From contig NZ_JAHWGU010000013.1 in the NCBI RefSeq assembly GCF_020873875.1, forward strand, positions 52,955 to 92,954: DNA of 40,000 bases, given 5' to 3'. Source of the DNA: Actinoplanes sp. DH11 (GTDB taxonomy: Bacteria > Actinomycetota > Actinomycetes > Mycobacteriales > Micromonosporaceae). The position numbers and the translations under genes are program-made. A model generated the notes under the pieces. It saw nothing but the letters and a program-made list of their open reading frames with translations. It was not told the DNA's origin and ran no database searches. Below, one piece after another: positions 19,906 to 40,000 of the stretch; positions within the stretch are counted from its first letter, which is position 1, and each line of letters opens with the position of its first letter.

Positions 19906-19933
19906 TGTCAAGCCCCGGGTTTGATGGAGTTGG

Positions 19934-22622: not shown

Positions 22623-23140
22623 AGCTCGATTTTCTCCCAGGTTCGGATGTCTCCATCAAACCCGGGGCGGAACATCCTCAGCTTATAGGTCATGCTCGCC
22701 GACATCCAACGTGAGTACGCCGGGGCTGGACTCGCGGTGATCTGGGCACAGGCACCGTGTCATCGACGGATCGCTGGCAGGCATCGTCAAGCCGTACAGG
22801 CGGCCAAGGAAATTTCCAGCCACCCCCTGCGACTAGCAGCGGTGCAGTATTGCTCGGGGGAGGGGACCTGGTTGGAGCAAAAACTGTAGAGAGGCGCTTC
22901 CTCCTGCCGCGCGGTAGTTTCCACCGCAAGTTCACTCAAGCGAGAGGGGTTGATGCCGATCTGGGCGATGTTGCATAGCGTGACGCGGTGATACGCACCC
23001 GGTGTTCCAGCGCGTCGCGTCTCCCGCCTCATTTTTACGGGCTTAAGTTCGGTAGGGTTGCGTGGTTCAGAACGAGTGAAACTGCGGCCCGGCTGTCGGG
23101 TCGGGTGATGCAGTTTCTGCGATGGAAGGCAGATGAAGGC

Positions 23141-23845
23141 ATGTCTGAGACGAAGCAGAAAGCGGTGGTCCTGCTCAGCGGCGGCCTCGACTCCGCCACG
23201 GTGCTCGCGATGGCCCTGCACGACGGGTATGAGCCTTATGCGCTGAGTTTCCGGTACGGCCAGCGTCACACGGTCGAGTTGGACGCTGCGAGTGCGGTTG
23301 CGAAGCAGTTCGGGGTCCGTAACCACGTCATTGCCGACATCGATCTGCGGGGCTTCGGGGGTTCTGCGCTGACAGACGACGGGATCGAGGTGCCGCACTA
23401 CGGAAGCGTCGATGACTTGAGCCAGGACATTCCGGTTACGTACGTGCCTGCACGTAACACGATCTTTCTGTCCTTCGCTCTGGCGTGGGCCGAGACACTG
23501 GATGCCTCAGATGTGTTCATCGGTGTGAACGCGCTTGACTACAGCGGGTACCCCGACTGCAGGCCGGAGTTCATCGCCGCTTACGAAACGATGGCGAACC
23601 TGGCCACGAAGGCCGGGGTGGAAGGCCGGCAGAGGCTCCGCATCCACACACCGCTCATCAAGTTGACCAAGGCGGAGACGATCCGTCGCGGGTTGGAATT
23701 GGGCGTCGACTACTCTCTGACGCACAGTTGCTACGACCCGGTCGATGGCCGCGCCTGTGGGACGTGTGATTCGTGTCTGCTGCGCGGGCGTGGCTTCGCT
23801 GAGCTCGGTCTCACCGACCCGGCTCTCGCCCCAGCCGGAGAATGA
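23141..23845 (+). CDS. queC: 7-cyano-7-deazaguanine (preQ0) synthase QueC
   Basis: [20 protein letters not shown] (PP-loop SGGxDS) and a C-terminal zinc cluster [20 protein letters not shown] prefer ATG 23141 (GAAGG upstream) over the track start 22988. Confidence 0.95.
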
Positions 23846-23851
23846 TCAGCG

Positions 23852-24490
23852 GTGTATCGAGTCAAAGAGATTTTCTACACCCTGCAGGGTGAGGGCTCGC
23901 ATGCTGGCCGACCGGCTGTGTTCTGCCGATTCACGAGCTGCAACCTGTGGACGGGCCGGGAGAAGGACCGGCATCGGGCCATCTGCCAGTTCTGCGACAC
24001 GGACTTCGTCGGTACAGACGGCCCTGGTGGGGGGCGATTTCGCACCGCGGCGGACTTAGCCGCCGCGGTTGCTCGAGCTTGGGAGGGCGAGCCGCACGAG
24101 CGAAGCAAGCCCTACGTCGTCTGCACTGGCGGCGAGCCGTTGCTGCAACTCGACGACGATGCAGTGCATGCCCTTCACGACGCCGGTTTCGAGGTCGCGG
24201 TCGAGACCAACGGGACGCAGCCGGCCCCGGCCGGTCTTGATTGGATCTGCGTCAGCCCGAAAGCTGGAGCACCGGTCGTGCTGACCCGCGGACACGATCT
24301 AAAATTAGTCTTCCCGCAGGTAGGCGTTGAACCCGCAATGTTCGAAGACCTGGAATTTGAGCACTTCATGCTTCAGCCAATGGACGGACCGGACCGAGTA
24401 GCAAACACCGAGGCCGCAGTCCGTTACTGCATGAAGCATCCGCAATGGCGTTTGAGTCTTCAGACGCATAAGTACATTGGAATCGCGTGA
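23852..24490 (+). CDS. queE: 7-carboxy-7-deazaguanine synthase QueE (radical SAM)
   Basis: 212 aa. [32 protein letters not shown]...CQFCDTDF shows the Cx14CxxC-type QueE cluster. [10 protein letters not shown] is also present. Confidence 0.93.
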
Positions 24491-24846
24491 TGGAAATATT
24501 CCGGGAGTTCACCTTTGAGGCCGCCCACCGGCTGCCCAATGTGCCGGAAGGTCACAAATGCGCCCGGTTGCACGGCCACTCGTATCGAGTCCAACTGCAT
24601 GTCACCGGCGAGGTCGACCCGCAGGCCGGTTGGCTGATGGACTTCGGCGACCTGAAAAAGGCGTTCCAGCCGTTGCATGCCCAACTCGACCATTACTACC
24701 TCAACGAGGTGGCGGGGCTGGAGAACCCGACCAGTGAGGTGCTCGCCCGCTGGATCTGGGACCGGCTCATCGACCAATTGCCGCTGTCCGCCGTGATGGT
24801 GCGCGAGACCTGCACCTCCGGCTGCATTTACCGAGGAGAGCAGTGA
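24487..24846 (+). CDS. queD: 6-carboxy-5,6,7,8-tetrahydropterin synthase QueD
   Basis: 119 aa. [26 protein letters not shown] is the PTPS-family zinc and catalytic motif. The junction is GTGATG (starts possible at 24487 or 24490). Confidence 0.95.
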
Positions 24847-25646
24847 TGTTGCCGGACGTGCAGGGGCTGCCGGACGAGCGAGGCGTCGCCCTGGACGAGG
24901 TCGGCATCGAGGGCCTGCGCTACCCGTTGCTGATCGCCGACGGCCAGGGCGTCAAGCGTGAGACGGTCGCCACCGTGGACATGTCGGTCGGCATCGGCGC
25001 GGACGTCAAGGGTGCACACCTGAGCCGCTTCGTCGAGGTGCTGCACGCCTGGCGAGACCAACTCGACCGGGCGAGCGCGCAGAGCCTGGCCGAGGACGTC
25101 CGGACCCGGCTCGGCACCGACAATGCGCAGGTCCGGCTGTCGTTCGCCTACTTTCTCGAGCGAACGGCACCGGTGACCGGAGCCCCGTCCTTCTCCGAGT
25201 ATCAATGCGCCCTCTCAGTCACTTCCAGCGACCGTGATACATCGCTGGAGCTTCAGGTCCGAGTCCCGGTGACCAGCGTTTGCCCGTGCAGCAAGGCGAT
25301 TAGTGACCGAGGCGCGCACAACCAGCGCGGCTACGTCACCGTCGTGGCAGAACCGTCGGATGGATCGCAGATCTGGTTCGACGACCTCATTGAGGTTGCG
25401 GAGGCCTCCGGGTCATCGCCGGTGTACGCGCTCTTGAAGCGTCCCGACGAAAGGCACGTCACCATGGCCGGGTACGACAACCCGGTTTTCGTTGAGGACA
25501 TGGCACGCCAAGTTGCGGTCACACTGCGGCAAGACGCCCGGGTAACCCGTTTCCGGGTGCGGGTTGTCAACGACGAGAGCATTCACAATCACGCTGCTTA
25601 TGCCCAGTTAGGCTGGATGACGACTGCAGCTACCGGGGACGTGTGA
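24843..25646 (+). CDS. folE2: GTP cyclohydrolase I type 2 (FolE2 / GCYH-IB)
   Basis: 267 aa with [35 protein letters not shown] and [23 protein letters not shown], all characteristic of GCYH-IB. The junction is GTGATG (24843 or 24846). Confidence 0.9.
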
Positions 25647-26590
25647 TGTCCAGCGTGGCACCGGCCACCTCGCCGGTCCACATCATCGTCACCTGCGCCA
25701 ACCGGAAAAGAGCCCCGATTCCCGAAGGCCTTCGACTGGGAGACCTCCGGGATCACGCAGAGGCGAAGCGATTCTCGGTGTGGGCGGAACGGCTCGTCGC
25801 CGCCACGCCGCGCATGCCCGCGATCGACCTCTACGGCGGAGAACATTGGCAGGCGGTCCGTGCCCTCCAGCAGGCTGTCGACGGCACCGCCCGTCTCTGG
25901 GTCTGCTCCGCAGGGTACGGCCTCGTGCCGATCGACGCGCAGCTCGTTCCGTACGCGGCCACGTTCGCTCCCGGCATGGACGATTCCGCTGGTTCGTCGC
26001 CGGCCGCGATGCGGGAGTGGTGGCGGCAGTTGACCCGTTGGGAGTGGCCGGCCGCGGATACGTCGCGGTCATTCGCCGATTTGGCCCGCCAGGACCCGCG
26101 GTCCACCATCGTCGCGGTGCTGTCCGAGTCGTACATGCGGGCATGCAGCGACGATCTGCGGGACGCCGCCGCTGGCTTGGCCGACCGGGAGCAGTTCGCG
26201 ATCCTGGGCCCGCCTAAGCGATGCGCAGAACTTGACGAGTTCGTCGTGCCGGTCACAGCTGCGCTGCGCTCGGTGGTCGGCGGCAGCATGCAGGCACTCA
26301 ATGTCCGTACCGCCATGCACCTACTCACCGCAGTGGGTAGCAATGTGGGGTTCAGCACGCTGCGCAAGCTTGCCCGCGAGACCGCCGAGGCCGCACCGCC
26401 CGATCCGGGCCGCCGGCCGACCGGGCAGAAGCTGGGGGACCAGGAGGTTCGCGACTACATCCGACAGGCCCTCAGCGACGGCCCGGGCACGGCCACGAGC
26501 CTGCTGCGGCGTCTGCGTGCAGCAGGCCAGTCCTGCGAGCAGGCCCGTTTCCACGGCCTGTTCGCCGAGGTCCGGGCGGAGGCAGGATGA
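25643..26590 (+). CDS. YaaA/DUF328-like protein with C-terminal extension; positional DpdC candidate
   Basis: 315 aa. By eye, the blocks are collinear with E. coli YaaA as I remember it: IIVTCANRK~ILISPAKT, LYGGEHW~[29 protein letters not shown]~[35 protein letters not shown]~VVINLASDEYFKSV. It is coupled on both sides (GTGATG, ATGA). Confidence 0.5.
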   Translation: [315 protein letters not shown]

Positions 26591-27729
26591 CCGCCGACTT
26601 CTCAGCGACGCAGTTGGTCCGTCGGGCGCTCCGGATCGAGCAGACCGACAAGTACCCGATGTTCATGTTTGCCCTGCGTGCTGACGAGGTTCTGCAGATC
26701 GCCGAGATCTCCCGGGTGAGCCGGGACGAGGCTGGCAACCTAATCGGGTACCAACGGCCAGAGGTGCGTCGCCACGTCGCTGAGATCATCGAATACCTCA
26801 ACACCGATGGCTCGCTGTTTCCCAATCCGATAATCCTGGCGCTGTCGTCGCGGAGCCGATTCGAGTCGAGCCGAGGGCCGGGAGCCGGTGACGGCCTCTC
26901 TACCTCCGGTCGACTGACGATTCCGCTGCCGACGAAGGGGAAACCCAAGCCTGCCTGGATCGTGGACGGCCAACAGCGTGCACTTGCCCTGTCGCGGACC
27001 AACCGCAGTGACTTCCCGGTGCCGGTGACCGCGTTCGTGGCCGACAGCGTTAGCCTGCAGCGTGACCAGTTCCTGCGGGTCAACAACACCCGTCCGCTGC
27101 CACGAGGCTTGGTCACCGAACTGCTGCCCGAGGTCGACAGCCCGCTTCCACCACGGTTGGCGATTCGCAAGGCGCCTGCGGCACTGTGCGATGTGCTCAA
27201 CACAGACCCCAGTTCACCGATGTACGGGCTGATCAAGCGCGCTTCCACGGCCCGAGACCAGGCTCCGCAGGCGGTCATCACCGACACCGTGGTCGTCAAT
27301 ATGTTGAACGAGAGTCTCACCTCACCGTCCGGGTGCTTGTTTCCCTACCGGGACGTCAGCCGGAACGAGACCGACTTCGATGGCATTCTGCAGGCACTGT
27401 TCACCTACTGGTCGGCGGTCCGGGACACTTTTCCGGATGCCTGGGGAAAACCGGCGAGCAAGAGCAGGTTGATGCACGGCGCTGGCATTCGTGCGATGGG
27501 CCGCCTAATGGACCGCATCCTCGGCGTGGTCGATCCGCGCAGTCCCAACGCTTCCGAAACCATTCGGCAGCACCTTGCCCTCATCGCGCCGTACTGCCGT
27601 TGGACCGAGGGCAAGTGGGACGAACTGAACATGCACTGGAACGAGATAGAAAACATGCATCGACATATTCAAGAGTTGTCCAGCTATCTCATCCGGGTCC
27701 ACCGGAACTCCCGGGCGGAACTGACGTGA
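26587..27729 (+). CDS. DGQHR-domain (DndB-like, ParB-fold) protein, DpdB-like paralogue 1
   Basis: 380 aa with GYQRPEVRRHVAEIIEYL, FPNPIILAL, WIVDGQQRALAL (motif at 26965-26979 reads DGQQR) and QRDQFLRVNNTRPLPRGL. Confidence 0.85.
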   Translation: MTADFSATQLVRRALRIEQTDKYPMFMFALRADEVLQIAEISRVSRDEAGNLIGYQRPEVRRHVAEIIEYLNTDGSLFPNPIILALSSRSRFESSRGPGAGDGLSTSGRLTIPLPTKGKPKPAWIVDGQQRALALSRTNRSDFPVPVTAFVADSVSLQRDQFLRVNNTRPLPRGLVTELLPEVDSPLPPRLAIRKAPAALCDVLNTDPSSPMYGLIKRASTARDQAPQAVITDTVVVNMLNESLTSPSGCLFPYRDVSRNETDFDGILQALFTYWSAVRDTFPDAWGKPASKSRLMHGAGIRAMGRLMDRILGVVDPRSPNASETIRQHLALIAPYCRWTEGKWDELNMHWNEIENMHRHIQELSSYLIRVHRNSRAELT

Positions 27730-28967
27730 GATTCTTTTTCCCCGACAGCCAAGACCAGGTCGATCCTACGTTTGACTTCGTCACCGAGGAGCACGATCCG
27801 TTCCGGGTTCGGCAGCGTGACGATCTCTATGCTCACGAGGTGCTGACCGGAGCCCCGTTCGACGGACTGCTGGTTTCCAAGGCGATCGTAGACGGCCAGG
27901 TCGGCAGCAGCGCCGGCAAGTACACCGTTGCTCAGCGGCACCGGCTCTACCGGGAGGGCGCGCGTCGGTTCTTCCGGCTGGACCACGGCCACACTCCCCT
28001 CAAGATCATGGGGGACTGTGGAGCGTTTTCCTATGTCTCCGAGGTGAAGCCGCCGTACACGGTGGACGAGGTGATCGACTTCTACCACGGATGCGGGTTC
28101 GACTACGGGATCTCCGTCGACCACGTCATCTTCCAGTACGACCCGGCCGCTAGCAGTGAAGAGGCTGAGACCCAGGGCTGGGCGAAGCGCCAGCGGATCA
28201 CGCTCGAACTCGCAGAGGAGTTCCGTGACCGCTGTGATGCGCGCGGAGTCGAGTTCACCGCGTACGGAGTGGCCCAGGGCTGGAGTCCGGAGTCGTACGC
28301 CGCGGCGGTCGAGAAACTGCAGGATCTCGGCTACCGTCACATCGCACTCGGCGGGATGGTGCCGCTCAAGTCACGGGACATCCTGGCCTGCCTGGCGGTC
28401 GTAAAGCCGGTACTCAAGGACGGTACCGAGGTCCATCTGCTCGGCGTCAGCCGATGCGATGATGTGCCGAAGTTTGCCGAGGGCGGCGTTACCAGCTTCG
28501 ATAGCACCTCGCCGTTCCGGCAGGCGTTCAAGGACGACCGGGACAACTTCTACACGCCGTCGCGTACCTATGTCGCCCTGCGGGTGCCGCAGGTGGACGG
28601 CAACGCCAAGCTGAAGGCACGCATCAGGTCTGGTGAGATCAGCCAGGGCAAGGCGGTCGAGTTGGAACGCCAGGCGCTGGACCAACTCCGTCGCTTCGAT
28701 GAGAACGACACGGACGTGGAATCCGTCGTGGAGGCGCTTCGGGAGTACAGCGACCTCTGGGACGGCAAGTCCGACCGCAGCGGTCAGTACCGTGAGACAC
28801 TCACCGCCCGTCCCTGGCGAGACTGCTCCTGCGACCTCTGCAAGCAGCACGGCATCGAGATCGCGATCTTCCGTGGATCCGAACGCAACAAGCGACGTGG
28901 GTTCCACAACCTGTACGTCTTCGAACAGCAACTCCGCGCACGACAAGCGAGGAAGGACCCCGCGTGA
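27726..28967 (+). CDS. dpdA: tRNA-guanine-transglycosylase-like DNA 7-deazaguanine transglycosylase DpdA
   Basis: GTG 27726 overlaps the upstream stop (GTGA). It has VRFFFPDSQDQVDPTFDF, IMGDCGAFSY, ALGGMVPL, LHLLGVSR, FDSTSPF, and the TGT zinc site CSCDLC...H (28824-28907). The track ORF 27186.. is an artefactual 5' extension. Confidence 0.88.
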   Translation: MRFFFPDSQDQVDPTFDFVTEEHDPFRVRQRDDLYAHEVLTGAPFDGLLVSKAIVDGQVGSSAGKYTVAQRHRLYREGARRFFRLDHGHTPLKIMGDCGAFSYVSEVKPPYTVDEVIDFYHGCGFDYGISVDHVIFQYDPAASSEEAETQGWAKRQRITLELAEEFRDRCDARGVEFTAYGVAQGWSPESYAAAVEKLQDLGYRHIALGGMVPLKSRDILACLAVVKPVLKDGTEVHLLGVSRCDDVPKFAEGGVTSFDSTSPFRQAFKDDRDNFYTPSRTYVALRVPQVDGNAKLKARIRSGEISQGKAVELERQALDQLRRFDENDTDVESVVEALREYSDLWDGKSDRSGQYRETLTARPWRDCSCDLCKQHGIEIAIFRGSERNKRRGFHNLYVFEQQLRARQARKDPA

Positions 28968-30118
28968 CCGAGACCTCCGAGCGTGACGCCACCGGTACGG
29001 TGACCGAACTCCGGCTCCCCACGCTGAAGATCGACCAGGGACGCGGGCGCAGCCTTTTCACCTTCGCCATCGACGGCAAACTGGTGCCGCAAATCGCCAC
29101 GGTCTCCCGGATCCGTCGTGACCAGAACACCGAACTGCACGGCTATCAGCGGCCCGAGGTGCTCAGCCATGTGGCTGCGATCCGCCGATACATCGAGACC
29201 GATACGAGCCCGCTGCTGCCCAATGCCGTCGTCATCGCGTTCGACGAGCGGGTCCGGTTTGAGCCAGCTCCGGGCGGTATCGCCGATGGGCCGGGTTACG
29301 TGCAGGCGGGAACCCTGGTCATCCCGCTGATCGATGGTCCAGACCACGAGCGGCCAGGCTTCATCGTGGACGGGCAGCAGCGCTGCGCGGCCATCCGGGA
29401 TGCCCGGGTCGACCGGTTCCCGGTCAGCGTCAACGCGTTCATCACCAGGGAGACCTCCGACCAGCGGTCCCAGTTTATTCTGGTCAACTCGACGAAGGCG
29501 CTGCCTAAAGGCCTGATTCACGAGTTGCTGCCGGCGGCGTCCGGAGCCCTTCCCACCCCGCTGCGGGTTCGGCGACTACCGGCCACCCTTCTCGAGCGGC
29601 TCAACTTCGACGAACTGCGCTCCCCGCTGTACCGCATGATCCAGACACCCACCAACCCCGGCGGGTACATCAAGGACAACTCGATGCTGCGGATGCTGGA
29701 AAACAGCCTCTCCGACGGCGCGCTGTACCGGTACCGCAACGATGACGGTCTGCCGCGAACTGGCGAGATGCTCTCGTTGCTGTACAACTTCTGGGCCGCG
29801 GTGGAGCAGGTCTTCCCCGACGCCTGGAAGTTGCCGTCCCGCAAGTCCCGCCTCATGCACGGAGCAGGCATCATCAGCATGGGCTACCTGATGGACGCGA
29901 TCAGCCACGTCCGGGACAACGGTCAGGAGATCGTCAGCACCGAGGAGTTCGCCGCCGACCTCAAGACCGTGGCCGAGGACTGCCACTGGACCGAGGGCGA
30001 GTGGATTTTCCTGGACGGTGTCGTCCGCAAGTGGAACGACATCCAGAACACCCCGCGGGACATCCAGCGGGTGGCGGACCTGCTGCAGAACCGCTACCGC
30101 GTACCGCAGCTGCGCTGA
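28964..30118 (+). CDS. DGQHR-domain (DndB-like) protein, DpdB-like paralogue 2
   Basis: 384 aa and collinear with 26587..27729. It has GYQRPEVLSHVAAIRRYI, LPNAVVIAF, FIVDGQQRCAAI (29369-29383), QRSQFILVNSTKALPKGL, FPDAWKLPSRKSRLMHGAGI and CHWTEGEW. I estimate roughly one-third identity to paralogue 1 by eye. Confidence 0.85.
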   Translation: MTETSERDATGTVTELRLPTLKIDQGRGRSLFTFAIDGKLVPQIATVSRIRRDQNTELHGYQRPEVLSHVAAIRRYIETDTSPLLPNAVVIAFDERVRFEPAPGGIADGPGYVQAGTLVIPLIDGPDHERPGFIVDGQQRCAAIRDARVDRFPVSVNAFITRETSDQRSQFILVNSTKALPKGLIHELLPAASGALPTPLRVRRLPATLLERLNFDELRSPLYRMIQTPTNPGGYIKDNSMLRMLENSLSDGALYRYRNDDGLPRTGEMLSLLYNFWAAVEQVFPDAWKLPSRKSRLMHGAGIISMGYLMDAISHVRDNGQEIVSTEEFAADLKTVAEDCHWTEGEWIFLDGVVRKWNDIQNTPRDIQRVADLLQNRYRVPQLR

Positions 30119-30128
30119 CCAACCAAAC

Positions 30129-30161
30129 ACTGCGGGGTACGCGTCACGCGTACCCCGCAGT
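30129..30161. terminator. bidirectional stem-loop between the two convergent dpd operons
   Basis: A perfect 15-bp stem, ACTGCGGGGTACGCG (30129-30143) paired with CGCGTACCCCGCAGT (30147-30161), with a 3-nt loop. It lies inside the 48-bp gap between the stops at 30118 and 30167. Confidence 0.75.
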
Positions 30162-30166
30162 TGGCT

Positions 30167-32128: not shown

Positions 32129-32652
32129 GCGGCCCCGTTCCGGTCGGTGAACCGGCGTTCGAAGTCGGCACGCGCGTGTGCCGCCATCGCCTGGTCGACA
32201 CGGTAGTGAATCATCTCGTCGTTGACGGCGATCCCCCGGTAGGTGAAGTTCATCGAGCCGCTGATCAGCCACTCCGCGCCGCATAACGTCTTCTCGTGGA
32301 CGTCTTCCGTGGTGAACACCTCGACCGATCCCGAGTCCGTCTGCCGTCCCAGCCGTTCCAGGAAGACCCGGTTGAACTCGGCCGGCCGGGTGACCACCGA
32401 CAGCCGGCCACCGGCCCGGACGATCCCGGCCAGCACCTCGGAGAGGGAGTAGATCCGGCTGGACGGGTCGGGGAAGACAGCATCGAACGCCGCCGCCCGG
32501 TTGTCGATCGCGGGCACGTCCCCGATCCACGGCGACACCAGCCATAGTCGCGGGCTCGGCGTCAGCAGTTCCCCCAACAGTGCCGTGGTCAGGAGCCTGT
32601 CGACCCGGACTCCGGTCCGGGCGCTCGTACGCACCACACGTTCGTCGGTCAC
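32122..32652 (-). CDS. phospholipase-D-like (single HKD) nuclease, DpdK-like
   Basis: 176 aa. The GTG start overlaps the helicase stop (GTGA). It has the motif VHEKTLCGAEWLISGSMNFT (HxK...GSxN) and an upstream LWLVSPWIG block, as in Nuc/PLDc_2 nucleases. Confidence 0.8.
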   Translation of the reverse strand: MTDERVVRTSARTGVRVDRLLTTALLGELLTPSPRLWLVSPWIGDVPAIDNRAAAFDAVFPDPSSRIYSLSEVLAGIVRAGGRLSVVTRPAEFNRVFLERLGRQTDSGSVEVFTTEDVHEKTLCGAEWLISGSMNFTYRGIAVNDEMIHYRVDQAMAAHARADFERRFTDRNGAAW

Positions 32653-35600
32653 TGAGCGAACTCCCGAATCTCCACGACACAGCTCATCTGCCCGGCCTCC
32701 CGATCCAGGGAACGCACGTCGCCGTACACCCGCAGCGCGCCGTGGTCGACCGGAGTGGCCGGTACCAGGCGCATCGCGGCGGTCACCGCGGCCATCTTCT
32801 CCACCGGGGCGGTGAGCCGCACCGCGCCGGACGACGTGATCTCCGCGATGTACCTCTCCCGCCATCCCGGCTCGGTGACGTCGATCCGGGGCAGCCGCTC
32901 ATCATGAGCGGCCTGCACCAACAATCGGTCCAGCAGGGCGCCCGGGGCGAATGGCTGATAGTGCACGAGCTGCTGAGACCGCGCGTCCGCGCCGCGTGGC
33001 CAGAGCAGGCTGTACACCTGATCGGCCCCGAACCGCCGCGAATCCAGGCCGGACACGGGGATGGTGCCGGTGCCGACCAGATAGGCGAAGACTGCGGCGT
33101 CCACCTCGAAGCCGAGCCGCTGTTGCGTCTCGTCCCACACACTCATCAGGTCGAGCACGAGCCGGTCGGTGCCGCGGTCGGTGCCCTTGCGGAGCAGCCG
33201 GGTTGAAAGTGCCGACACGGCCTGCTGCCGCGGATGCCCGTCGATCGCAGCCCAGGCCAGCTTGAGCTCACTCAGAGCATTCTCGGCCGCACCCGCCGAC
33301 GGCGGGTCACGTAGCACGTCGATCTGCTGGGCCGCAGCCGAACCAGGGTTGTCCACCACGTGCCGCAGCAACTGGATGAGGGTGTCGTGCAGGTACTCGT
33401 AATCGCTGGGCGCGAGAGCGCTGTCGACCAGCGACCAGAACCGGCGCGGGTCCTCCTGGTAGTAGGGCGCCAGTTGGGTGATGATGCCCAGGCCCCCGAT
33501 CGAGGTCTCGCTCAGCCACACCGTGGCGATCCCGTCCGGGCTCTCCGGAGCGATCACATCGACGGTGAGATCGCCGTCCTGCGCGTCCGGGCAGGCGCGC
33601 TGTGCCGCGGCCAGGATCGCGGCGGCGACGGTGTCCCGGTACGCGCGGCGTGCCAGATCAGCGGTTTGGACGTCGATGTCGTCGCACCAGAGCAGTCGGC
33701 TGTGCTGGTCGACAGCATCCCGCACGACCCTCTGGGTCGCCAGGTTGCGTAGATCGCCGGCGAGCCGGTTGGGTCCGACTCCGCCCTCGCTGCGGTAGAT
33801 GGCGTTGAGTACCTCGTCGACCCGGTCTGCCCACCGGCCGTTCGTCAGCGAGCGGTGTGCCGCCTCGGGGTCACGGCCACCGCCGGAGCACCGCAACAGG
33901 GCGTAGGCAGTGGTGTACACCAGGGCCAGCCAGCCGCGGGCGAACACGTTGACGTCAGCCTCGTCCAGCTTCGGGTCGGCCACCAGTGTGGCCTTGAACG
34001 CCAGGAACCGCCACTGCGGCGAGCGTAGGTAGGTCGCGACGCGTTCGTCCGACGGGTCCAGCGCCGCGGCGGTGAACCGGATCGCGTCGACGTCCATGCG
34101 GAAACCGAGCGCCGCGGGTTCGTCGTCGTACCGGTACTCCACCTTCCGGCTGAACGACCCTTTGCCGATCATCGTGTTGCAGTTGGCGCCGGTGGTCATC
34201 CGGCGCACCTCAACCGGGTTGCCGGCCGCGCCGGTGGCGAACCCGACCGAGCGAACCCGGTCCTCCCACAGCGAGGGTTTCGGGACGGCACCCTCGTTGA
34301 GGTGATCGGGCACAAACTCAGACGCCCACACCGGGGTGGCCTGGGACTGGTCCTTCACGTCCGGAGGTGGGGGCGACAGCTTGATGATGTGCGGGCGCAG
34401 CACCCGGATCGGCGGTCGGCCGGGTGGCTGCCAGTGTCCTTCGTCCTCGTACTGCTCGGTGAACGTGGTGATCTCCAGGTCGCTGCTGGTACCCGGGGGC
34501 AGCGGCAGCCAGGTGCGGTCCCAGGCGGTCCGGAAGCCGAACCGGCGGCTGGCCCGGCCCGGAACCGCCTCCCGCAGCGCGCGTTCAATCGGCATCGGCA
34601 CGTCGTCCGCGTTCTCGAAGGGCAGCCGGAAGGTCACTTCGGGCAGGTTCAGCGAGTCGAACAGGGTACGGGTCACGAACTCCGGCAGCAGCGTGTTCGG
34701 TTCCGCACCGGGCTCCGTGGCGGCCCAGCGCGACTCCAGACGTCGCAGGACCGTCGGCGCTACGCCGAGCATCAGCGACCGGGGCGCCTCCCACATCAGT
34801 GCCGTGACCTCGTCAGCTGGCACACCCAGGGACCGGCGGAGCCATACGGCCAATTCCTTCTGGATACGCCCGTCCGCCAGCAGCAACTTCAGTTGATCGA
34901 TAACGGCTTGGGCGTCCCAGTGGCGGTCCTTGCCCTTGGCTGGGGCGGTAACCGCCCGGCGGCTGTCGCACCGGGCACGCCGGGCGATCCAGTCCAGCAT
35001 GGACTGGGCCGCCTGGATCTTCAGTACGAAACGGTTGCCGACCGGCAATCGGCGGGCGGGCAGTTCCGGATCGAAGAGTTGATCGTAGGCCTGGTAGGTG
35101 AGGCGGTCCCGGCCGAAGTCAGAGAGCGTCACCACGGTCCACGGCCGGGTCAGCCGCCGACGGCCGGCGCGGCCACGCCGCTGCAGGAACGAGGCGGCGT
35201 CCCGGGGCGCCTTGTGCTGCACCACGAGGCCGACCCGGTCGTCATCAACACCGACCTCGAGCGATGCCGTCGCCACGACCAGGTCGGCGTCCTGGTCGAC
35301 CCCGGTGTCCTGCGACGAGGTCCGCCCGACCCGCAGCCCGTACCTCTTCCTGTCCGGGTCCAACTGCCGGCCGATGGTGTTCACCAGGTCCCACCGCTGG
35401 CCATCGAGGTATTGCGCACCGTTGGCGCCACGATCCTTCGAGCGCAGCCCGGCCAGAACCGAGGAGTTGCCGTTCGGTCCGTTGCCTTCGGCGTCCGCGA
35501 GGTCGTTGTACAAACGGTTGGTCACATCGAGGTCGTCGGTGAAAAGGAAACCCCTCGACCCGTAGAGCCACTCGGAGCCACGCGGGTCGAGGACTCGGGC

Positions 35601-37067
35601 GTGCAGCATGGCGGCCTGGATGGTGGTCGACAGCGGGCTCACCCGTGAGACCGGATCGACCCGCAGAGCCATCGCGTACTGGCGGCCCTCCTCCTCCATG
35701 TCATCGGGATGCGGCGACAGGTAGTCGACGTTGTGTCGGTCCACGCCGGTAAGGTCGCTGAAAAAATCTGCCGCGTCCCGCAGGGTCGCGCTCAGGCCGA
35801 CGATGGTCAGCTGCTGCCGGCCCAGCCCGCTACGCCACCGCCGCAGCAGCAGGGCGACCTGGGCGCCGTGCATGCCGCTGTAGGTGTGCGCCTCGTCGAG
35901 CAGCACCAGCCTGGGTACCCGTCCGCCGGTCCAGCCGAGCAGGGGAGCCTGCCCCGGATCCGTGCTGGTCCGGTTCAGCATCTCGGTGCTCGTGAAAAGC
36001 AGATCCGGAGGATTCTCTCGCAGGGTCCGACGGGTCAACACCAGGTGGTCGATCGGTGGCTGGGCGCAATCCGGGGCGGTGCAGCGCAGCCGCTCCCGCG
36101 GCTTCACCGCGACGCGGTCCATCTCGGCCCAGATCAGGTCACCGCGGCAAGTGGGACATTTGAGGTACGGGCAGACGGGATCCGTGCCGTGCCGGGCCCA
36201 GCCGCGGCCGCGGCCGCCCTGGGCGGAGGACAGCCGGAAGTCGTCGTTGTCGTAAGCGGTGTCGCCGTACAAAACACCGATCCGTAGGCCGCGCGTGCCG
36301 TGCTCGGCCAGTGCCAAGTTGATCGCCGAGGTGTTGGCGACCGCCTCCCGGAGTTGGTCGCGCAGCAGTTCGTTGCGCGGATACAGCGCCAGGGTGTGCA
36401 CGCCTGTCCTGCGGGTCTGAGCGTGATCGGACATTGCCAGCAACGCCGGCAGATAGAATGACAAGGTCTTTCCGCTACCGGTGCCGGCTCCGACGATGAC
36501 CGCCCGGCCCCCGCCCAGGGCGAGGTCCCGGCGGATCGCGATGCTCGATTCGACCTGGAATCGAGCCAGGTCGCGCCCGCCCAGCAGGGCCTTGATCACG
36601 GCCTGCTGCCGGGCATCGAGTGCTGGACCGTCCGGTGGCCGCAGTTCGTCGATCACCTTGGCGACAGGAATGTTCCGGGCCGGATAGCGGCGCCGCTCGA
36701 CATGCAGGCGGTAGTCGGCAACGAGCCGAGGCTCACCCTCCCACCAATTGCCGGACCAATCCTTGATTCGGAACGGGAGGATCTGGCGTAGCGAAGCCGT
36801 CAGCCGGACAGTCTCGGCCAGTCGGGTTCGGTAGGTGGGCGGTGAGGTGGCCGGCACCTTCATCGCCAACCCCCGTTGAAGCAGCTCCGCCAGCACGTCC
36901 TCAGCCATGAGAGCAGACACTCCAGGCTGGTAGATCCGATTCTCGATGACGGCGATCACTTCGTCGTGGGAGATCACGCCGCTGGTGACGCCCCACGTCA
37001 GCAGCGGTAGTTCGAGATCCTCCAGGTCGTCGAGGATGTCGGAGTAGAGACGCCGGAGATCGGTCAC
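32649..37067 (-). CDS. very large DEAD/DEAH-box (SF2) helicase with Cys-rich insert and ~830-aa C-terminal extension (DpdJ/DpdE class)
   Basis: 1472 aa. Helicase motifs: I GAGTGSGKT (aa 193-201), Ia LYPRNELLRDQ, II LLDEAH (389-394), III GLSATL, V VATASLEVGVD, VI FLQRRGRAGRR (628-637). CPYLKCPTC...CTAPDC lies between motifs Ib and II. The GTG start overlaps the upstream stop. Confidence 0.9.
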   Translation of the reverse strand: MTDLRRLYSDILDDLEDLELPLLTWGVTSGVISHDEVIAVIENRIYQPGVSALMAEDVLAELLQRGLAMKVPATSPPTYRTRLAETVRLTASLRQILPFRIKDWSGNWWEGEPRLVADYRLHVERRRYPARNIPVAKVIDELRPPDGPALDARQQAVIKALLGGRDLARFQVESSIAIRRDLALGGGRAVIVGAGTGSGKTLSFYLPALLAMSDHAQTRRTGVHTLALYPRNELLRDQLREAVANTSAINLALAEHGTRGLRIGVLYGDTAYDNDDFRLSSAQGGRGRGWARHGTDPVCPYLKCPTCRGDLIWAEMDRVAVKPRERLRCTAPDCAQPPIDHLVLTRRTLRENPPDLLFTSTEMLNRTSTDPGQAPLLGWTGGRVPRLVLLDEAHTYSGMHGAQVALLLRRWRSGLGRQQLTIVGLSATLRDAADFFSDLTGVDRHNVDYLSPHPDDMEEEGRQYAMALRVDPVSRVSPLSTTIQAAMLHARVLDPRGSEWLYGSRGFLFTDDLDVTNRLYNDLADAEGNGPNGNSSVLAGLRSKDRGANGAQYLDGQRWDLVNTIGRQLDPDRKRYGLRVGRTSSQDTGVDQDADLVVATASLEVGVDDDRVGLVVQHKAPRDAASFLQRRGRAGRRRLTRPWTVVTLSDFGRDRLTYQAYDQLFDPELPARRLPVGNRFVLKIQAAQSMLDWIARRARCDSRRAVTAPAKGKDRHWDAQAVIDQLKLLLADGRIQKELAVWLRRSLGVPADEVTALMWEAPRSLMLGVAPTVLRRLESRWAATEPGAEPNTLLPEFVTRTLFDSLNLPEVTFRLPFENADDVPMPIERALREAVPGRASRRFGFRTAWDRTWLPLPPGTSSDLEITTFTEQYEDEGHWQPPGRPPIRVLRPHIIKLSPPPPDVKDQSQATPVWASEFVPDHLNEGAVPKPSLWEDRVRSVGFATGAAGNPVEVRRMTTGANCNTMIGKGSFSRKVEYRYDDEPAALGFRMDVDAIRFTAAALDPSDERVATYLRSPQWRFLAFKATLVADPKLDEADVNVFARGWLALVYTTAYALLRCSGGGRDPEAAHRSLTNGRWADRVDEVLNAIYRSEGGVGPNRLAGDLRNLATQRVVRDAVDQHSRLLWCDDIDVQTADLARRAYRDTVAAAILAAAQRACPDAQDGDLTVDVIAPESPDGIATVWLSETSIGGLGIITQLAPYYQEDPRRFWSLVDSALAPSDYEYLHDTLIQLLRHVVDNPGSAAAQQIDVLRDPPSAGAAENALSELKLAWAAIDGHPRQQAVSALSTRLLRKGTDRGTDRLVLDLMSVWDETQQRLGFEVDAAVFAYLVGTGTIPVSGLDSRRFGADQVYSLLWPRGADARSQQLVHYQPFAPGALLDRLLVQAAHDERLPRIDVTEPGWRERYIAEITSSGAVRLTAPVEKMAAVTAAMRLVPATPVDHGALRVYGDVRSLDREAGQMSCVVEIREFAQ

Positions 37068-37735
37068 GACGCCCTCCGCCGGACCACAATCGTGCCGGTC
37101 AGCCCGTGCTCGCTGAGCAGCCGCAGGTCATCGGCCGTCAGTTTGTCGAGCGTGGTGCCGGCGTCCAACCGTCGCAACAGATCGAGCAGTTCTGGGTTGG
37201 GGTCGGGGGCCTCGTCGAGTCGCTCGCGCAACCGGCCGTGGACGGCGAGGAACTGGGTGATCGTCGCGGCCCGGGCCTCGCCGGCACGCAGTTTCCCGAG
37301 ATCCTTCAGCGAGGCCTTAGCGGCCGCGGCCTCCGCGCCCTCGAACATGACCAGCCGGTCCACCCGCAGTTCCGCGAGCCGTTCGGCGGACCAACTCGTC
37401 CATGCCTGCTGCACCGCGGCGCCGATGCCCTTGCCTGCGTTCGACACGGTGGTGATCGCGCCGTTCAGCGCCGTGTCGGAGGGCACGCCTCCGGCCGTGC
37501 GCTTGCGGAAGAGCGACAGGCCGTTGGCGGCCTTGCCGAGGTCGATCGACGCGCCCTCGGCGTTGAGCCGGCGTGCGGCCTCGAGCGTGGTGCGCAGTTG
37601 CTCGAGTTGATCCCGGAGCTGGTTGATCTTGGTGGTGGTGGCGAAGGTGGTCACCTCCTCTGCGCGGCTGATCTGGATCTGACGGGCCGTGGCGGCGAAC
37701 TGCAGAGCCTTCTCCATGACCGACTGGTTACTCAT
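37064..37735 (-). CDS. hypothetical all-helical protein (223 aa) in the dpd effector operon
   Basis: ATG 37735 overlaps the upstream gene end by 8 nt (ATGAGTAA). Product MSNQSVMEKALQFAATARQIQISRAEEV...; Ala/Leu/Arg-rich and coiled-coil-like. I recognise no domain. Confidence 0.65.
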   Translation of the reverse strand: MSNQSVMEKALQFAATARQIQISRAEEVTTFATTTKINQLRDQLEQLRTTLEAARRLNAEGASIDLGKAANGLSLFRKRTAGGVPSDTALNGAITTVSNAGKGIGAAVQQAWTSWSAERLAELRVDRLVMFEGAEAAAAKASLKDLGKLRAGEARAATITQFLAVHGRLRERLDEAPDPNPELLDLLRRLDAGTTLDKLTADDLRLLSEHGLTGTIVVRRRAS

Positions 37736-40000
37736 CAGATCCCTCTCCCACCGGCTTCTCGACCACGATTCTTTCCCACTCGGTGCAGACCTCCCGTACC
37801 TGCCTGGCCAGATCGTCGCCGGTACCGCCGGCGCGCAGGGCAGCGGCCGCCAGGCTTCGGTCAAGCCAGGCGCCGCTCTCCGTCAGGAAATCGGCCAGCG
37901 GCTTCAGGCCCGCGCCGCGAGGGCGGGTAGCCGTCACGATGGCGAGCTGCTGCCACCGGCTGTCGTCTGCCTTGTCGAGTTTGCCGAGGTCGTTCCGCAA
38001 CTGGTCGACGGCCTCCGAACCAAGGTCGCGTGCTTCGTCGAGGCGCTTGACGAAGTTCAGCCGGAACTCCTCCCCGCCGGGGAGCAGGCCGACCTCTCCC
38101 GCCATCTTGAACGCCTGGTCGATTGCATCCAGGGTGTCCTTCAGGTTCACCCCGGGCGGTAGCAGCCCGGACAGCCGTTGGTTGATCTCCCGGAACGCGA
38201 TGTTCTGGTGCTCCACCAGTTCGCCGAAGCGTGCGAGCGGAGCGTTCGCCGGGTGGATCCACTTCGCCTCGGCCGACGGCACGTGCTGCCAGGACCAGTC
38301 GGCGGCCTGCCGGACCAGCCTGACCACCCGCGCGCTGTCGAGCATTCGGACGGCGCCCATACCCTGGGGCACGCCTAGCAGTTGGCGGATCTCTGTGATC
38401 AGCTGCAGGCGAGCCGCCCGATGATTGGTGAAGGCTGTCTTCCACGTGTCGACCCGAAGGGCGGCATCGGTCAACTGCCAGGCGGCGCCGTTGTCGAAGG
38501 CAGCCGCCATCAACTCCGTGTCTTTCATACCCGGCCGTGCATGCCCGGCCACGGCCGCGCCGATCAGCGAGGCTCGCAGCGCCTTGACCAGGAGATCATC
38601 CTGGCCACCGCGGATCCGGAGGACCGCCTTGACGAGGTCCGGTTGGTGCCGCTCGGCGATCTTGGCGAGCTGCGGCAGGGCCTTCTCGTTACCTGGATCG
38701 TCGACTTTCGCCTGCAGGGTCAGCAACTGGCCGAAGAAGACCGCCGTTACCCGGTCGCGTTCAAACCGGATCGGGGCGTGCTCGCTGTGGCCTTCTCCCG
38801 CGGCGTCCCTGATCGAGACCACACTGGACCGGCTGGCCGGCCAGGCGAGTTTCTTGACGTCCGCGTTCGGCTCGCCCATGAGCGGGGAGCTCCAGTCACA
38901 GCGGTTGTAGACCGCTGCGCTGACGATGCGGCGGACCTCCGCCGCGGTGTTCTGGGTCAGCGGCTGGTGCCCGGCCGCCCACTGCTCGACGGCGGCCAGG
39001 TGTTCGCGCAGCGCCCTGGGCCAGGCCGCCTTCGGATCGACGGGGCCGGGAGCCGGTGCTGCCTTCGTCAGTGCCGGCTTGGCAGGCGAAGCCGTGGGCG
39101 TCCGGTCCATGACTCGCGGGGTGGTGGTCAGTTCCGGGATCCCGAAGGCGTCGTGGATACCGGAGTCGACATTCGTGACCTCGGCCGGGGCGTCTCCCCA
39201 GAATTCGAGCAGGAGCGCCCGTCGTTCGGCGGTGGCCGGGTCGGCCGTCTCCAGCGCGACGTGGACCTTCGAGTGCAGTTGCGGCTCGGAGGTGACCGGG
39301 GGGAACTGCTCGCGGAACCGCGCGTTCGGGAACCGGCCGGAGGCCAGGTCGTCCCCGTCCTCGAGTACCGGCCGGATCACTCGGCCGATGATCCGGCGCG
39401 GGTTGAACGTGTCGCCCTCATCCCGCCCGGGCGTGCTCCGGATGGCCCGGCGCAGCGCCGTCCAGTTGAACGGGAACAGGCCGTGCCCACTCGGCGAGAC
39501 ACCGAACGATTCGTGGCAGGACTCGCGGAATTTGCAGTCGTCGCACGCGTTGGGCACCGGGGCGCTGTCGGCGACGCCCGCCTCCTCGAGCCGGCCGGCG
39601 CCGATCCGCGCCGCGTTCAGGTAACGGCCGACGAAATTCTGGGTCCGCTGCCGTCCCTCGTGGTCAGGGTTGAAGTCGGCGTCCAGGTCGTAGACGTACG
39701 GGGTGGCCGCCTCCATCCGGGTGACGACGGTCTTCGCCAGGTCACGGTAGTAGCCGGATGTGATCGCCATCAGGGTACGGATCGGCGCGTACACCTGCTG
39801 TCCGTCGCGAATGCCGGCCTCGATCAGCACATCGAGCAGATCGCGCTGGAGACCCTGGATGACCGCGAAGTCCTCGATCAGCAGGACGATCTCCTTACCC
39901 TGCCGGTGGTACTCCTCCCGGATCGTCAGCATGGCGTCCTGCAGGCGGCCACCGAGCTTGAACACCTGCTGCACCGCGGTGGAGAGGTTCTCGGTGATCA
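37728..40000 (-). CDS. large P-loop-NTPase-like protein, 5' end outside window (possible DpdH equivalent)
   Basis: The frame is open to the window edge (...ITENLSTAVQQVFKLGG...). It has a Walker-B-like EIVLLIEDFA, a Cys/His cluster CDDCKFRESCH (39513-39545), and a long helical C-terminal region. At least 757 aa are visible. Confidence 0.7.
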   Translation of the reverse strand, partial: ITENLSTAVQQVFKLGGRLQDAMLTIREEYHRQGKEIVLLIEDFAVIQGLQRDLLDVLIEAGIRDGQQVYAPIRTLMAITSGYYRDLAKTVVTRMEAATPYVYDLDADFNPDHEGRQRTQNFVGRYLNAARIGAGRLEEAGVADSAPVPNACDDCKFRESCHESFGVSPSGHGLFPFNWTALRRAIRSTPGRDEGDTFNPRRIIGRVIRPVLEDGDDLASGRFPNARFREQFPPVTSEPQLHSKVHVALETADPATAERRALLLEFWGDAPAEVTNVDSGIHDAFGIPELTTTPRVMDRTPTASPAKPALTKAAPAPGPVDPKAAWPRALREHLAAVEQWAAGHQPLTQNTAAEVRRIVSAAVYNRCDWSSPLMGEPNADVKKLAWPASRSSVVSIRDAAGEGHSEHAPIRFERDRVTAVFFGQLLTLQAKVDDPGNEKALPQLAKIAERHQPDLVKAVLRIRGGQDDLLVKALRASLIGAAVAGHARPGMKDTELMAAAFDNGAAWQLTDAALRVDTWKTAFTNHRAARLQLITEIRQLLGVPQGMGAVRMLDSARVVRLVRQAADWSWQHVPSAEAKWIHPANAPLARFGELVEHQNIAFREINQRLSGLLPPGVNLKDTLDAIDQAFKMAGEVGLLPGGEEFRLNFVKRLDEARDLGSEAVDQLRNDLGKLDKADDSRWQQLAIVTATRPRGAGLKPLADFLTESGAWLDRSLAAAALRAGGTGDDLARQVREVCTEWERIVVEKPVGEGSDE

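Follow-up and report, generated by a model that had tools for sequence, protein, structure and literature searches.

What does a stretch of Actinoplanes sp. DH11 DNA encode in which preQ0 genes stand beside a TGT-like enzyme, two DGQHR proteins and a long helicase, and has it stayed intact? The window analysed here is the whole stretch of 40,000 nucleotides (Table 1). We are highly confident that this locus holds a restriction-modification island of the Dpd type (7-deazapurine in DNA), assembled as a mosaic from two cassettes that converge. In a Dpd system, some guanines of the cell's own DNA are exchanged for 7-deazaguanine bases, and DNA without the mark is attacked. The island is real and well preserved: each gene visible in the window keeps its reading frame and its conserved motifs and covers the length of its family. 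It is also of a textbook type: the system is already known, because RefSeq names the identical proteins DpdA (WP_229072212.1), DpdB (upstream copy WP_229072211.1, downstream copy WP_229072213.1) and DpdJ (WP_229072216.1, 'protein DpdJ'), which agrees with the original prediction of a member of a described family and not a new principle.

Table 1. Features of the window, in order of position
Feature	Position	Strand	Evidence or context
tRNA-Met (CAT)	18907..18981	+	ARAGORN; Rfam 75 bits; last core-genome feature before IS nest and island
IS256-family (Mutator) transposase gene fragment, truncated by next element	19568..19906	-	Pfam Transposase_mut, E 6e-14
IS3-family element, interrupted by nested IS30-type element	19905..22675	-	HTH_Tnp_1, HTH_21, rve, rve_3, rve_2 (Pfam)
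IS30-type element nested in IS3 element	20246..21684	+	Pfam HTH_38 and rve
Perfect palindrome GAAACTGC-N24-GCAGTTTC	23078..23117		24 nt upstream of queC ATG
queC, 7-cyano-7-deazaguanine (preQ0) synthase	23141..23845	+	TIGR00364, 211.7 bits (cut-off 150.3)
queE, 7-carboxy-7-deazaguanine synthase (radical SAM, Cx14CxxC type)	23852..24490	+	TIGR04508, 354.8 bits (cut-off 240)
queD, 6-carboxytetrahydropterin synthase	24487..24846	+	TIGR03367, 113.7 bits (cut-off 89)
folE2, GTP cyclohydrolase IB	24843..25646	+	NF010200, 259.9 bits (cut-off 215)
dpdC (DUF6884/YaaA-like)	25643..26590	+	PADLOC DpdC models, E 2e-68 and 2.5e-65
dpdB, upstream paralogue (DGQHR/ParB-like)	26587..27729	+	NF041060 DpdB, 426 bits (cut-off 300)
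dpdA, DNA-guanine transglycosylase	27726..28967	+	NF041059, 605.6 bits (cut-off 200)
dpdB, downstream paralogue	28964..30118	+	NF041060, 469 bits (cut-off 300)
Hairpin, 15-bp stem, 11 G-C pairs	30129..30161		Terminator scan; separates two converging operons
dpdD, 652 aa from GTG overlapping dpdK stop	30167..32125	-	NF041061, 530.8 bits (cut-off 300)
dpdK, single-HKD phospholipase-D-type nuclease	32122..32652	-	NF041068, 188 bits (cut-off 100)
dpdJ, 1472-aa YprA-family DEAH helicase	32649..37067	-	NF041067, 1592.6 bits (cut-off 800), full length
Short divergent DpdI-like protein (putative), 223 aa	37064..37735	-	Profile comparison
dpdH, C-terminal 756 codons, gene continues past window	37728..40000	-	NF041065, 702 bits (cut-off 450)

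Modification operon

ORF calls confirmed all eight plus-strand genes predicted for 23141-30118. They follow the order queC-queE-queD-folE2-dpdC-dpdB-dpdA-dpdB, and the junctions, foreseen as overlapping or near-abutting, comprise six 4-nt ATGA/GTGA overlaps and one 6-nt gap; the operon is translationally coupled. Family scans bear out the proposed content of QueC, QueE, QueD, FolE2, a YaaA/DUF328-like protein, a TGT-like enzyme and two DGQHR proteins, with QueC, QueE, QueD, FolE2, DpdB, DpdA and DpdB assigned above curated NCBIfam cut-offs and DpdC via PADLOC, but the TGT-like gene, which had been listed before both DGQHR genes, in fact lies between them. As had been stated, none of the eight genes is a QueF or QueA in these scans, and queG is likewise absent from the cluster (NCBIfam, Pfam). 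For the dpdC product, the PADLOC alignment at E 2.5e-65 is full length, Pfam matches to DUF6884 and YaaA are below threshold only, and the protein that occupies the DpdC position on Enterobacter pPOL9A is 27% identical to it (E 6e-31).

FolE2, QueD, QueE and QueC would convert GTP to preQ0, such that the cassette would supply its own substrate. For DpdA, DpdB and DpdC, we take the chemistry from the Salmonella work (PMC10164549): DpdA, a TGT paralogue, would replace certain guanines of double-stranded DNA with preQ0, with Asp259 as the predicted aspartate nucleophile and Asp97 as the general acid/base, the exchange would require ATP hydrolysis by the ParB-like DpdB, and the dpdC product should turn the preQ0 placed in DNA into its amide, ADG. 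All the DpdA residues given there as catalytic or base-stacking are conserved, Asp95, Phe99, Asp130, Leu236 and Asp256 of the Salmonella enzyme being D97, F101, D132, L239 and D259 here (PMC10164549). The three catalytic aspartates and the CxCxxC...H zinc site of the solved Salmonella enzyme are likewise retained. The enzymes differ at His181 of Salmonella DpdA, which is Gln184 in the window, a substitution common in the clade, and we take Gln184 to resemble Gln203 of bacterial TGT.

The two DpdB proteins, both matching the DpdB equivalog as expected of Dpd-type DGQHR proteins, share 41% identity with each other. The downstream copy shares 50% identity and a clade with the one DpdB of Enterobacter; to judge from its sequence, it is orthologous to the DpdB ATPase characterised in enterobacteria. 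The upstream copy, in which the DGQHR motif reads DGQQR, clusters with the upstream Sinorhizobium copy in a separate clade, and by the same kind of comparison it is an old second paralogue. The two paralogues may divide labour here. Among related fetched loci, a dpdB lies directly upstream of dpdA in 47 of the 57 whose flanks reach far enough and directly downstream in 61 of 62, the sole exception (Asanoa) being a strand artefact of the script.

The 40-bp palindrome occurs once in the window (0 expected by chance), and its position upstream of queC is conserved in related loci; a search upstream of queC on Sinorhizobium americanum CCGM7 plasmid B did not find it. Rfam gave no match, and an RNA helix is not supported because the arms show no compensatory changes. 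The palindrome is a probable operator of the modification operon, and the hairpin between the converging operons is likely a bidirectional terminator.

Restriction operon

The five minus-strand genes, described beforehand as overlapping at their starts and stops, are all real, with overlaps of 4-8 nt at four of four junctions. The operon, dpdH (cut by the window end)-dpdI-like-dpdJ-dpdK-dpdD, converges on the modification operon. D, H, J and K each reach their own Dpd equivalogs, and PADLOC assigns DpdA, B, C, D, H, J and K. The 1472-aa DEAH helicase of the original prediction is DpdJ (GSGKT at residue 197, DEAH at 391, QRRGRAGR at 629), and its single-HKD PLD nuclease is DpdK, which has a single HxK...GSxN motif and in which HEKTLCGAEWLISGSMN aligns with enterobacterial DpdK. 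The PADLOC alignment of DpdD (E 2.5e-180) runs from residue 187 of the long ORF, and DpdH covers profile positions 275-1014 only, with its frame open to the window end and its N-terminal ~270 residues outside.

The 223-aa protein has no match in NCBIfam, Pfam or PADLOC; its family comprises about 100 clusters, whose members are ~225 aa long. A 70-sequence profile of this family, set against the DpdI-position protein of pPOL9A (282 aa) in a single profile-to-single-sequence comparison, gave 88.9% probability (E 2.4e-6, 140 columns); the likeness is recognisable only by profile comparison, and the protein is quite probably a divergent DpdI-like one. By analogy with relatives, the restriction cassette would be complete, with dpdE, dpdF and dpdG presumably just past the window end. 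The mechanism is likewise proposed by analogy: the products of dpdD, K, J, I-like and H, and presumably E, F and G, would attack DNA lacking the mark, with DpdJ (YprA-type helicase) as the most likely motor and DpdK (PLD nuclease) as its most likely nuclease partner.

Origin of the island and alternative readings

The island had been described as following a tRNA gene and IS debris, and tRNA-Met indeed lies 4.2 kb upstream of queC, with IS remnants at 19.5-22.7 kb. A role of the tRNA gene as insertion site is unsupported, since the window, beyond which the far end of the island lies, holds no integrase and no second copy of the tRNA-Met 3' end. The IS256-family fragment covers Transposase_mut profile positions 296-351 only. 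The IS3 element is bounded by 25-nt inverted repeats (88% complementary) and has orfA at 22305-22622 and orfB in two pieces (21580-22308 and 19934-~20300); the IS30-type element has 20-nt terminal inverted repeats (100% complementary) and a transposase frame with an in-frame stop at 21225-21227 between same-frame ORFs 20241-21224 and 21228-21683. Because the last trace of IS activity lies only 465 bp from queC on its upstream side, the promoter context may be altered.

Against about 0.70-0.73 in the core, G+C drops to 0.62-0.65 at 23-25 kb, the lower value foreseen for the left end of the island, and at 27-29 kb; G+C at third codon positions (GC3) is 0.69-0.86 in the modification genes and 0.89-0.95 in core genes. 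Micromonospora cathayae shares the modification cassette at 87-97% identity but DpdJ, DpdK and DpdD at no more than 28-34%, and its cassettes are co-directional, unlike the convergent ones of the window. The island is a mosaic because identity to M. cathayae is about 95% in the modification cassette and about 30% in the restriction proteins. Together with the lower GC3 and the IS flank, this pattern supports horizontal acquisition, as originally proposed.

Has the island decayed, or does it serve modification only, with an incomplete or silent restriction cassette, as an epigenetic marker or remnant? The left flank is three nested, broken IS elements, dpdE, F and G are not seen, some related islands lack the restriction operon (PMC12235509), and in M. 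cathayae, whose modification cassette is nearly identical, DpdK has lost its catalytic His. We nevertheless regard this reading as improbable: all visible genes are intact, including the HxK...GSxN motif of DpdK and the GSGKT, DEAH and QxxGRxGR motifs of DpdJ, and Asanoa, the closest relative of the same restriction lineage, has the full E-F-G-H-I-J-K-D set. We infer that the Dpd locus of Actinoplanes sp. DH11 is active.

Two further readings concern the modification genes and are each extremely unlikely. A role of the TGT-like enzyme and of the preQ0 genes in a tRNA pathway (queuosine or archaeosine-type), not in DNA modification, would fit the membership of DpdA in the TGT superfamily (Pfam TGT, E 3e-8) and the NCBI product name, still 'tRNA-guanine transglycosylase DpdA'. 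However, the protein scores 28 bits on the bacterial tRNA Tgt equivalog (cut-off 307) and 33 bits on the archaeal TgtA model (cut-off 350), against 606 for DpdA; its best solved relative is PDB 7UI4, 'DNA-guanine transglycosylase' (E 7e-121), with tRNA TGTs at about 1e-6; and dpdA is translationally coupled to two DpdB genes and DpdC in a cluster that lacks queF, queA and queG. A GTP cyclohydrolase with QueD, QueE and QueC is also the core of 7-deazapurine antibiotic clusters, which occur in actinomycetes, and the host is an actinomycete. PreQ0 is a scaffold for secondary metabolites (PMC12235509), and the preQ0 genes might on these grounds be part of a toyocamycin/sangivamycin-like nucleoside-antibiotic cluster. 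Against this, preQ0 synthesis and DpdC, B, A, B account for all eight operon genes, with no phosphoribosyltransferase, nitrile hydratase, tailoring or export gene in the operon, and the layout is conserved alongside Dpd restriction genes in many loci.

Comparison with known systems

Both DpdB proteins belong to the DGQHR/DndB family (Pfam DndB, E 1e-20 and 4e-15), a likeness to Dnd phosphorothioation, in which DndB is described as a DNA-binding regulator of its own operon (PMC5699537). Unlike Dnd systems, the island has no dndACDE genes, and the two proteins reach only 50 and 37 bits on the dnd-associated DGQHR model (cut-off 450). Dpd islands are known from several actinomycetes, among them Kineococcus radiotolerans, in which dPreQ0 and dADG have been shown experimentally (PMC5699537, PMC12235509). 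Asanoa ishikariensis, Amycolatopsis marina and Micromonospora spp. share the queC-queE-queD-folE2-dpdC-dpdB-dpdA-dpdB operon gene for gene; A. marina also has the convergent layout, and A. ishikariensis, whose layout matches and includes dpdE, F and G, has the restriction lineage in common as well (58-74% identity). Among 80 related metagenome loci, the queC...dpdC-B-A-B layout is the predominant one, and a Sinorhizobium plasmid has it too. There, on S. americanum CCGM7 plasmid B, a dpdC?-dpdB-dpdA-dpdB core, with both DpdB copies annotated by PGAP, adjoins queE, queD and queC, but the preQ0 genes follow the core instead of preceding it, a VUT/YhhQ transporter is present and no restriction cassette lies nearby.

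The Dpd system dpdA-K was reportedly described by Thiaville in 2016 from Salmonella enterica serovar Montevideo, for which the near-prototype locus of plasmid pPOL9A from Enterobacter cloacae stands in our comparison. The original prediction of a gene content unlike this prototype holds in part. The window adds an ancient second DpdB between dpdC and dpdA, and a complete preQ0 pathway (folE2, queD, queE, queC) heads its operon; extra dpdB copies and in-cis preQ0 genes have already been reported as common (PMC12235509). The gap is nonetheless smaller than supposed: although protein identity is only 26-49%, families A, B, C, D, H, I (remote), J and K occur in both, and the C-(B)-A-B/D-K-J-I-H layout of the window matches the convergent prototype, in which dpdC...dpdA-dpdB faces dpdD-K-J-I-H-G-F-E.

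Gene content and membership in the Dpd family

The original prediction had described two converging operons, and the ORF list and translations bear out this layout. The plus-strand operon, the modification cassette, is joined by 4-nt ATGA or GTGA overlaps, with the exception of a 6-nt gap between queC and queE. The predicted number of eight genes stood, while their predicted order did not: the TGT-like gene (dpdA) had been placed ahead of both DGQHR genes (dpdB) but lies between them. The minus-strand operon, the restriction cassette, overlaps by 4-8 nt at its four visible junctions, and a terminator scan returned a hairpin between the two operons. The frame of its fifth gene, dpdH, is open to the final base of the window, so the gene is cut by the window edge and is not truncated in the genome.

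Features of the window, with NCBIfam models and scores (curated cut-offs in brackets)
Feature	Coordinates	Strand	Model	Bits (cut-off)	Remarks
Core genome	839-18689				also ABC transporters, ROK-family protein, sugar-phosphate isomerase-like protein
dnaG primase	839-2689				core genome
tRNA-Asn	16984-17059				core genome
Amine oxidase	17268-18689				core genome
tRNA-Met	18907-18981
Three nested IS remnants	19568-22675				3' of tRNA-Met
IS256-family fragment					after tRNA-Met; cut by IS3-family element
IS3-family element	19905-22675				25-nt inverted repeats; split by IS30-type element
IS30-type element	20246-21684				perfect 20-nt inverted repeats; in-frame stop in transposase, 21225-21227
Weaker palindrome copy	22880-22921				198 bp upstream of palindrome
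Palindrome	23078-23117				24 nt before queC ATG
Modification operon	23141-30118	+			eight genes
QueC		+	TIGR00364	212 (150)
QueE		+	TIGR04508	355 (240)
QueD		+	TIGR03367	114 (89)
FolE2		+	NF010200	260 (215)
DpdC	25643-26590	+			315 aa
DpdB (upstream)	26587-27729	+	NF041060	426 (300)
DpdA	27726-28967	+	NF041059	605.6 (200)
DpdB (downstream)	28964-30118	+	NF041060	469 (300)
Hairpin	30129-30161				15-bp stem
Restriction operon	past window end to 30167	-			five genes visible
DpdD		-	NF041061	531 (300)
DpdK		-	NF041068	188 (100)
DpdJ		-	NF041067	1593 (800)
DpdI-like protein	37064-37735	-			223 aa
DpdH		-	NF041065	702 (450)	partial gene; profile positions 275-1014

Each gene that has an NCBIfam model exceeds the curated cut-off of that model, including the restriction genes dpdD, dpdH, dpdJ and dpdK. 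DpdC is matched in Pfam by DUF6884 and YaaA at sub-threshold scores only; the PADLOC DpdC models recover it at E 2e-68, and it matches the protein in the DpdC position of pPOL9A, an Enterobacter cloacae plasmid with a near-prototype Dpd locus, at E 6e-31. The silence of NCBIfam on the DpdC and DpdI positions is understandable because PGAP leaves both named 'hypothetical' even in pPOL9A; apparently NCBIfam has no DpdC model, so its silence on DpdC carries no information.

The 223-aa protein, which has no match in NCBIfam, Pfam or PADLOC, is encoded between dpdH and dpdJ, where dpdI is expected, and a protein of Actinoplanes sp. DH11 matches it at 100% identity. An exhaustive profile search retrieved about 100 clusters of relatives of about 225 aa and nothing longer that was convincing. 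When a 70-sequence profile was aligned with hhalign to the enterobacterial protein in the DpdI position, over its last 140 residues, the match reached 88.9% probability (E 2.4e-6) and covered an AW..W motif and the terminal TL..LT...L..L stretch. This wider profile was required, as a first, narrow one gave a probability of only 14.8%, and pairwise BLASTP between the two proteins was weak (E 0.001). Position and profile alignment together suggest that the 223-aa protein is likely a short, divergent DpdI.

A TGT-like enzyme beside que genes could also belong to the bacterial Tgt/queuosine pathway, and DGQHR proteins could belong to Dnd phosphorothioation. On the bacterial tRNA Tgt model TIGR00430, DpdA scores 28.4 bits, below the cut-off of 306.75, and neither QueF, QueA nor QueG is found among the eight products of the operon by NCBIfam, Pfam or PADLOC, which sets the operon apart from the queuosine pathway. 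The two DGQHR proteins score 50 and 37 bits on TIGR04172 (cut-off 450), and their neighbours are que and dpd genes, a difference from Dnd systems. Together with the NCBIfam Dpd matches, the low Tgt score supports the Dpd-island interpretation that the original prediction had offered. Among the proteins of the window, by exact look-up, RefSeq already names WP_229072211.1 and WP_229072213.1 'DGQHR domain-containing protein DpdB', WP_229072212.1 'tRNA-guanine transglycosylase DpdA' and WP_229072216.1 'protein DpdJ', and DpdA homologues of the same name occur in dozens of actinomycete genomes, including Micromonospora, Dactylosporangium, Salinispora and Amycolatopsis.

The transglycosylase and the two DpdB paralogues

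Against 7UI4, the solved DNA-guanine transglycosylase of Salmonella, DpdA aligns at E 7e-121. In the Salmonella enzyme Asp95 acts as the general acid/base and Asp256 as the nucleophile, with further roles for Asp130, Phe99 and Leu236 (PMC10164549); DpdA keeps D97, D132, D259, F101 and L239 as well as the CxCxxC...H zinc site. The sole difference among the compared site residues is the replacement of His181, which contacts the base in Salmonella, by Gln184. We rejected the idea that this replacement signals altered chemistry, as His and Gln alternate across the whole clade with all catalytic residues intact. At this position, related loci with an upstream dpdB carry Gln in 56 cases and His in 6, whereas those without it carry His in 7 and Gln in 3, an association that is probably a clade effect.

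The two dpdB copies flank dpdA and are 41% identical to each other, and both retain the GYQRPE, DGQQR and QF..VN motifs. A neighbour-joining tree of 13 DpdB sequences has one clade that unites the downstream copies with the only enterobacterial DpdB, to which the downstream copy of the window is 50% identical, and another that unites the upstream copies with the upstream Sinorhizobium copy (44%). The downstream gene is therefore orthologous to the ATPase that PMC10164549 characterised, and the upstream gene is an old second paralogue, absent from the Salmonella type.

Paired dpdB genes are not in themselves a novelty, and we rejected them as such: PGAP annotates both, the layout dominates among relatives, and extra copies were described in PMC12235509, where dpdB is the dpd gene most often found in extra copies and preQ0 genes commonly lie within dpd islands. 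Among 80 metagenomic relatives, with DpdA 55-70% identical, the dominant arrangement is queC-queE-queD-folE2-dpdC-dpdB-dpdA-dpdB. Across all related loci that were fetched, dpdB lies directly upstream of dpdA in 47 of the 57 with enough flank and directly downstream in 61 of 62. Six metagenome loci (L015, L022, L023, L036, L051 and L077) are further copy-number variants: in some a second dpdC-like gene lies 3' of the downstream dpdB, in some the downstream-type dpdB is doubled in tandem, and in some the opposite strand carries an additional upstream-type dpdB.

A conserved palindrome upstream of queC

When the regions preceding queC in five actinomycete loci were aligned, a perfect 8+8 palindrome stood out, GAAACTGC-N24-GCAGTTTC, which occurs once in the window, where none is expected by chance, and is placed alike in Asanoa, Amycolatopsis and Jatrophihabitans. 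A search of 852 kb, in which at most 3 of the 16 arm positions could differ and the spacer could span 22-26 nt, gave 48 matches, against about 11 in shuffles; the matches cluster 21-96 nt upstream of queC and the spacer is nearly always 24 nt. A weaker second copy, AAAACTGT-N26-GGTAGTTTC, precedes the first in the window, and a second copy lies upstream of the first in Asanoa (L001 24129-24168) and in metagenome locus L023 as well.

Read as an RNA hairpin, the arms are 85% paired but carry no compensatory substitutions, which is no better than shuffled sequence. Because the arms lack compensatory change and the spacer sequence is not conserved, we rejected the hairpin in favour of a DNA site, and the palindrome is a candidate protein-binding site or operator with half-sites three helical turns apart. 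Rfam returned no riboswitch, preQ1 included, 5' of queC at gathering thresholds, and none on 22500-23250 even at E values up to 1. A sigma-70 promoter scan of 22500-30400 gave zero sites, a result that says little for an actinomycete.

The palindrome is present in 19 of 28 queC-first loci with an upstream dpdB and in 0 of 7 without (Fisher p = 0.0017, ignoring relatedness and with instances picked by the motif match itself), an association that is a lead and not a result. It is conceivable, if rather doubtful, that the two DpdBs are non-redundant, the downstream protein pairing with DpdA as its ATPase, the role it has in Salmonella, and the upstream protein being a DndB-like regulator or targeting subunit that binds DNA at the palindrome, so that preQ0 supply and DNA marking would follow the level of this upstream protein. 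The upstream clade is old, has members on rhizobial plasmids and is missing from the prototype. If this holds, it would give Dpd systems their first described cis-regulatory element and regulator; the Dpd papers behind this comparison mention no operator, and the palindrome appears to be undescribed.

Mosaic cassettes and comparison with known systems

Identity to Micromonospora cathayae is 87-97% for the modification proteins (about 95% for the cassette) but just 28-34% for DpdD, DpdK and DpdJ, which puts these three as far away as their enterobacterial counterparts. Because near-identical modification proteins are paired with such distant restriction proteins, the island is a mosaic whose two cassettes have separate histories. 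The restriction proteins are 58-74% identical to those of Asanoa ishikariensis. The modification cassette is convergent in the window and co-directional in M. cathayae (L003), where it follows dpdD, and GC3 rises from 0.69-0.86 in the modification cassette to 0.85-0.88 in the restriction cassette and 0.89-0.95 in the core. The mosaic would fit a scheme in which every Dpd restriction module recognises one common mark. In M. cathayae itself, DpdK (L003 2549-3082) has a degenerate PLD motif, with SGAK for HxK and GGMD for GSxN, which suggests an inactive nuclease. As for the way in which the island arrived, no att-type repeat of the tRNA-Met 3' end is present within the window, and no integrase is found among the ORFs of 16.5-23.2 kb or elsewhere in the window; the tRNA-Met gene is a neighbour and not a demonstrated insertion site.

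A genome-contig scan with DpdJ returned Asanoa only (DpdJ 74% identical), in which dpdE-F-G-H-(223-aa gene)-J-K-D converges on dpdB-dpdA-dpdB-dpdC-folE2-queD-queE-queC. Because Asanoa has dpdE (an SNF2 helicase), dpdF (a RecQ-like helicase) and dpdG, all three upstream of dpdH, these genes would be expected just past 40 kb in DH11. The convergent layout is identical in Amycolatopsis marina, and in Jatrophihabitans the modification operon diverges from dpdE and dpdF. In Jatrophihabitans telluris, the gene call in the dpdC position is just 166 aa long (L005 8359-8859) and follows a 440-bp gap behind folE2; this dpdC may be truncated or frameshifted.

By sequence, the locus encodes all the steps from GTP to preQ0, a transglycosylase of the DNA type whose active site is intact, a pair of ParB-like partners and DpdC, along with a restriction operon rich in helicases and nucleases, and the modification and restriction components are each translationally coupled. 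The cis-encoded preQ0 genes would free the island from host queuosine genes, which to our knowledge are missing from many actinomycetes. In DNA, DpdA replaces guanine with preQ0 by double displacement, for which it requires the DpdB ATPase, and DpdC converts preQ0-DNA to ADG-DNA independently (PMC10164549). The restriction phenotype stems from dpdD-K (PMC5699537, PMC10164549); DpdJ is a YprA-family helicase associated with a PLD nuclease (PMC12458937).

The system typifies a large actinomycete branch of the Dpd family that has been annotated before, so it is already known and brings little that is new as a Dpd island: publications cover the family, its chemistry and its actinomycete spread, and the locus is labelled in RefSeq. 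The additions are modest, namely the paralogue assignment, the cassette mosaic and the palindrome, and of these only the last appears to be new. The locus is of use as a clean and self-sufficient example from an actinomycete, in which the preQ0 pathway, both DpdB paralogues and DpdC accompany a restriction cassette. It suits three questions beyond the reach of the Salmonella prototype: the role of the second DpdB, the free interchange of cassettes, given an identity of about 95% for the modification cassette and only about 30% for the restriction proteins, and the regulation of the modification operon, for which the palindrome is a candidate site. In pPOL9A, dpdC-dpdA-dpdB faces dpdD-K-J-(282-aa gene)-H-G-F-E, and the island therefore has the overall architecture of the enterobacterial prototype; the dpdB-dpdA-dpdB arrangement recurs on a Sinorhizobium plasmid, where both copies are likewise annotated.
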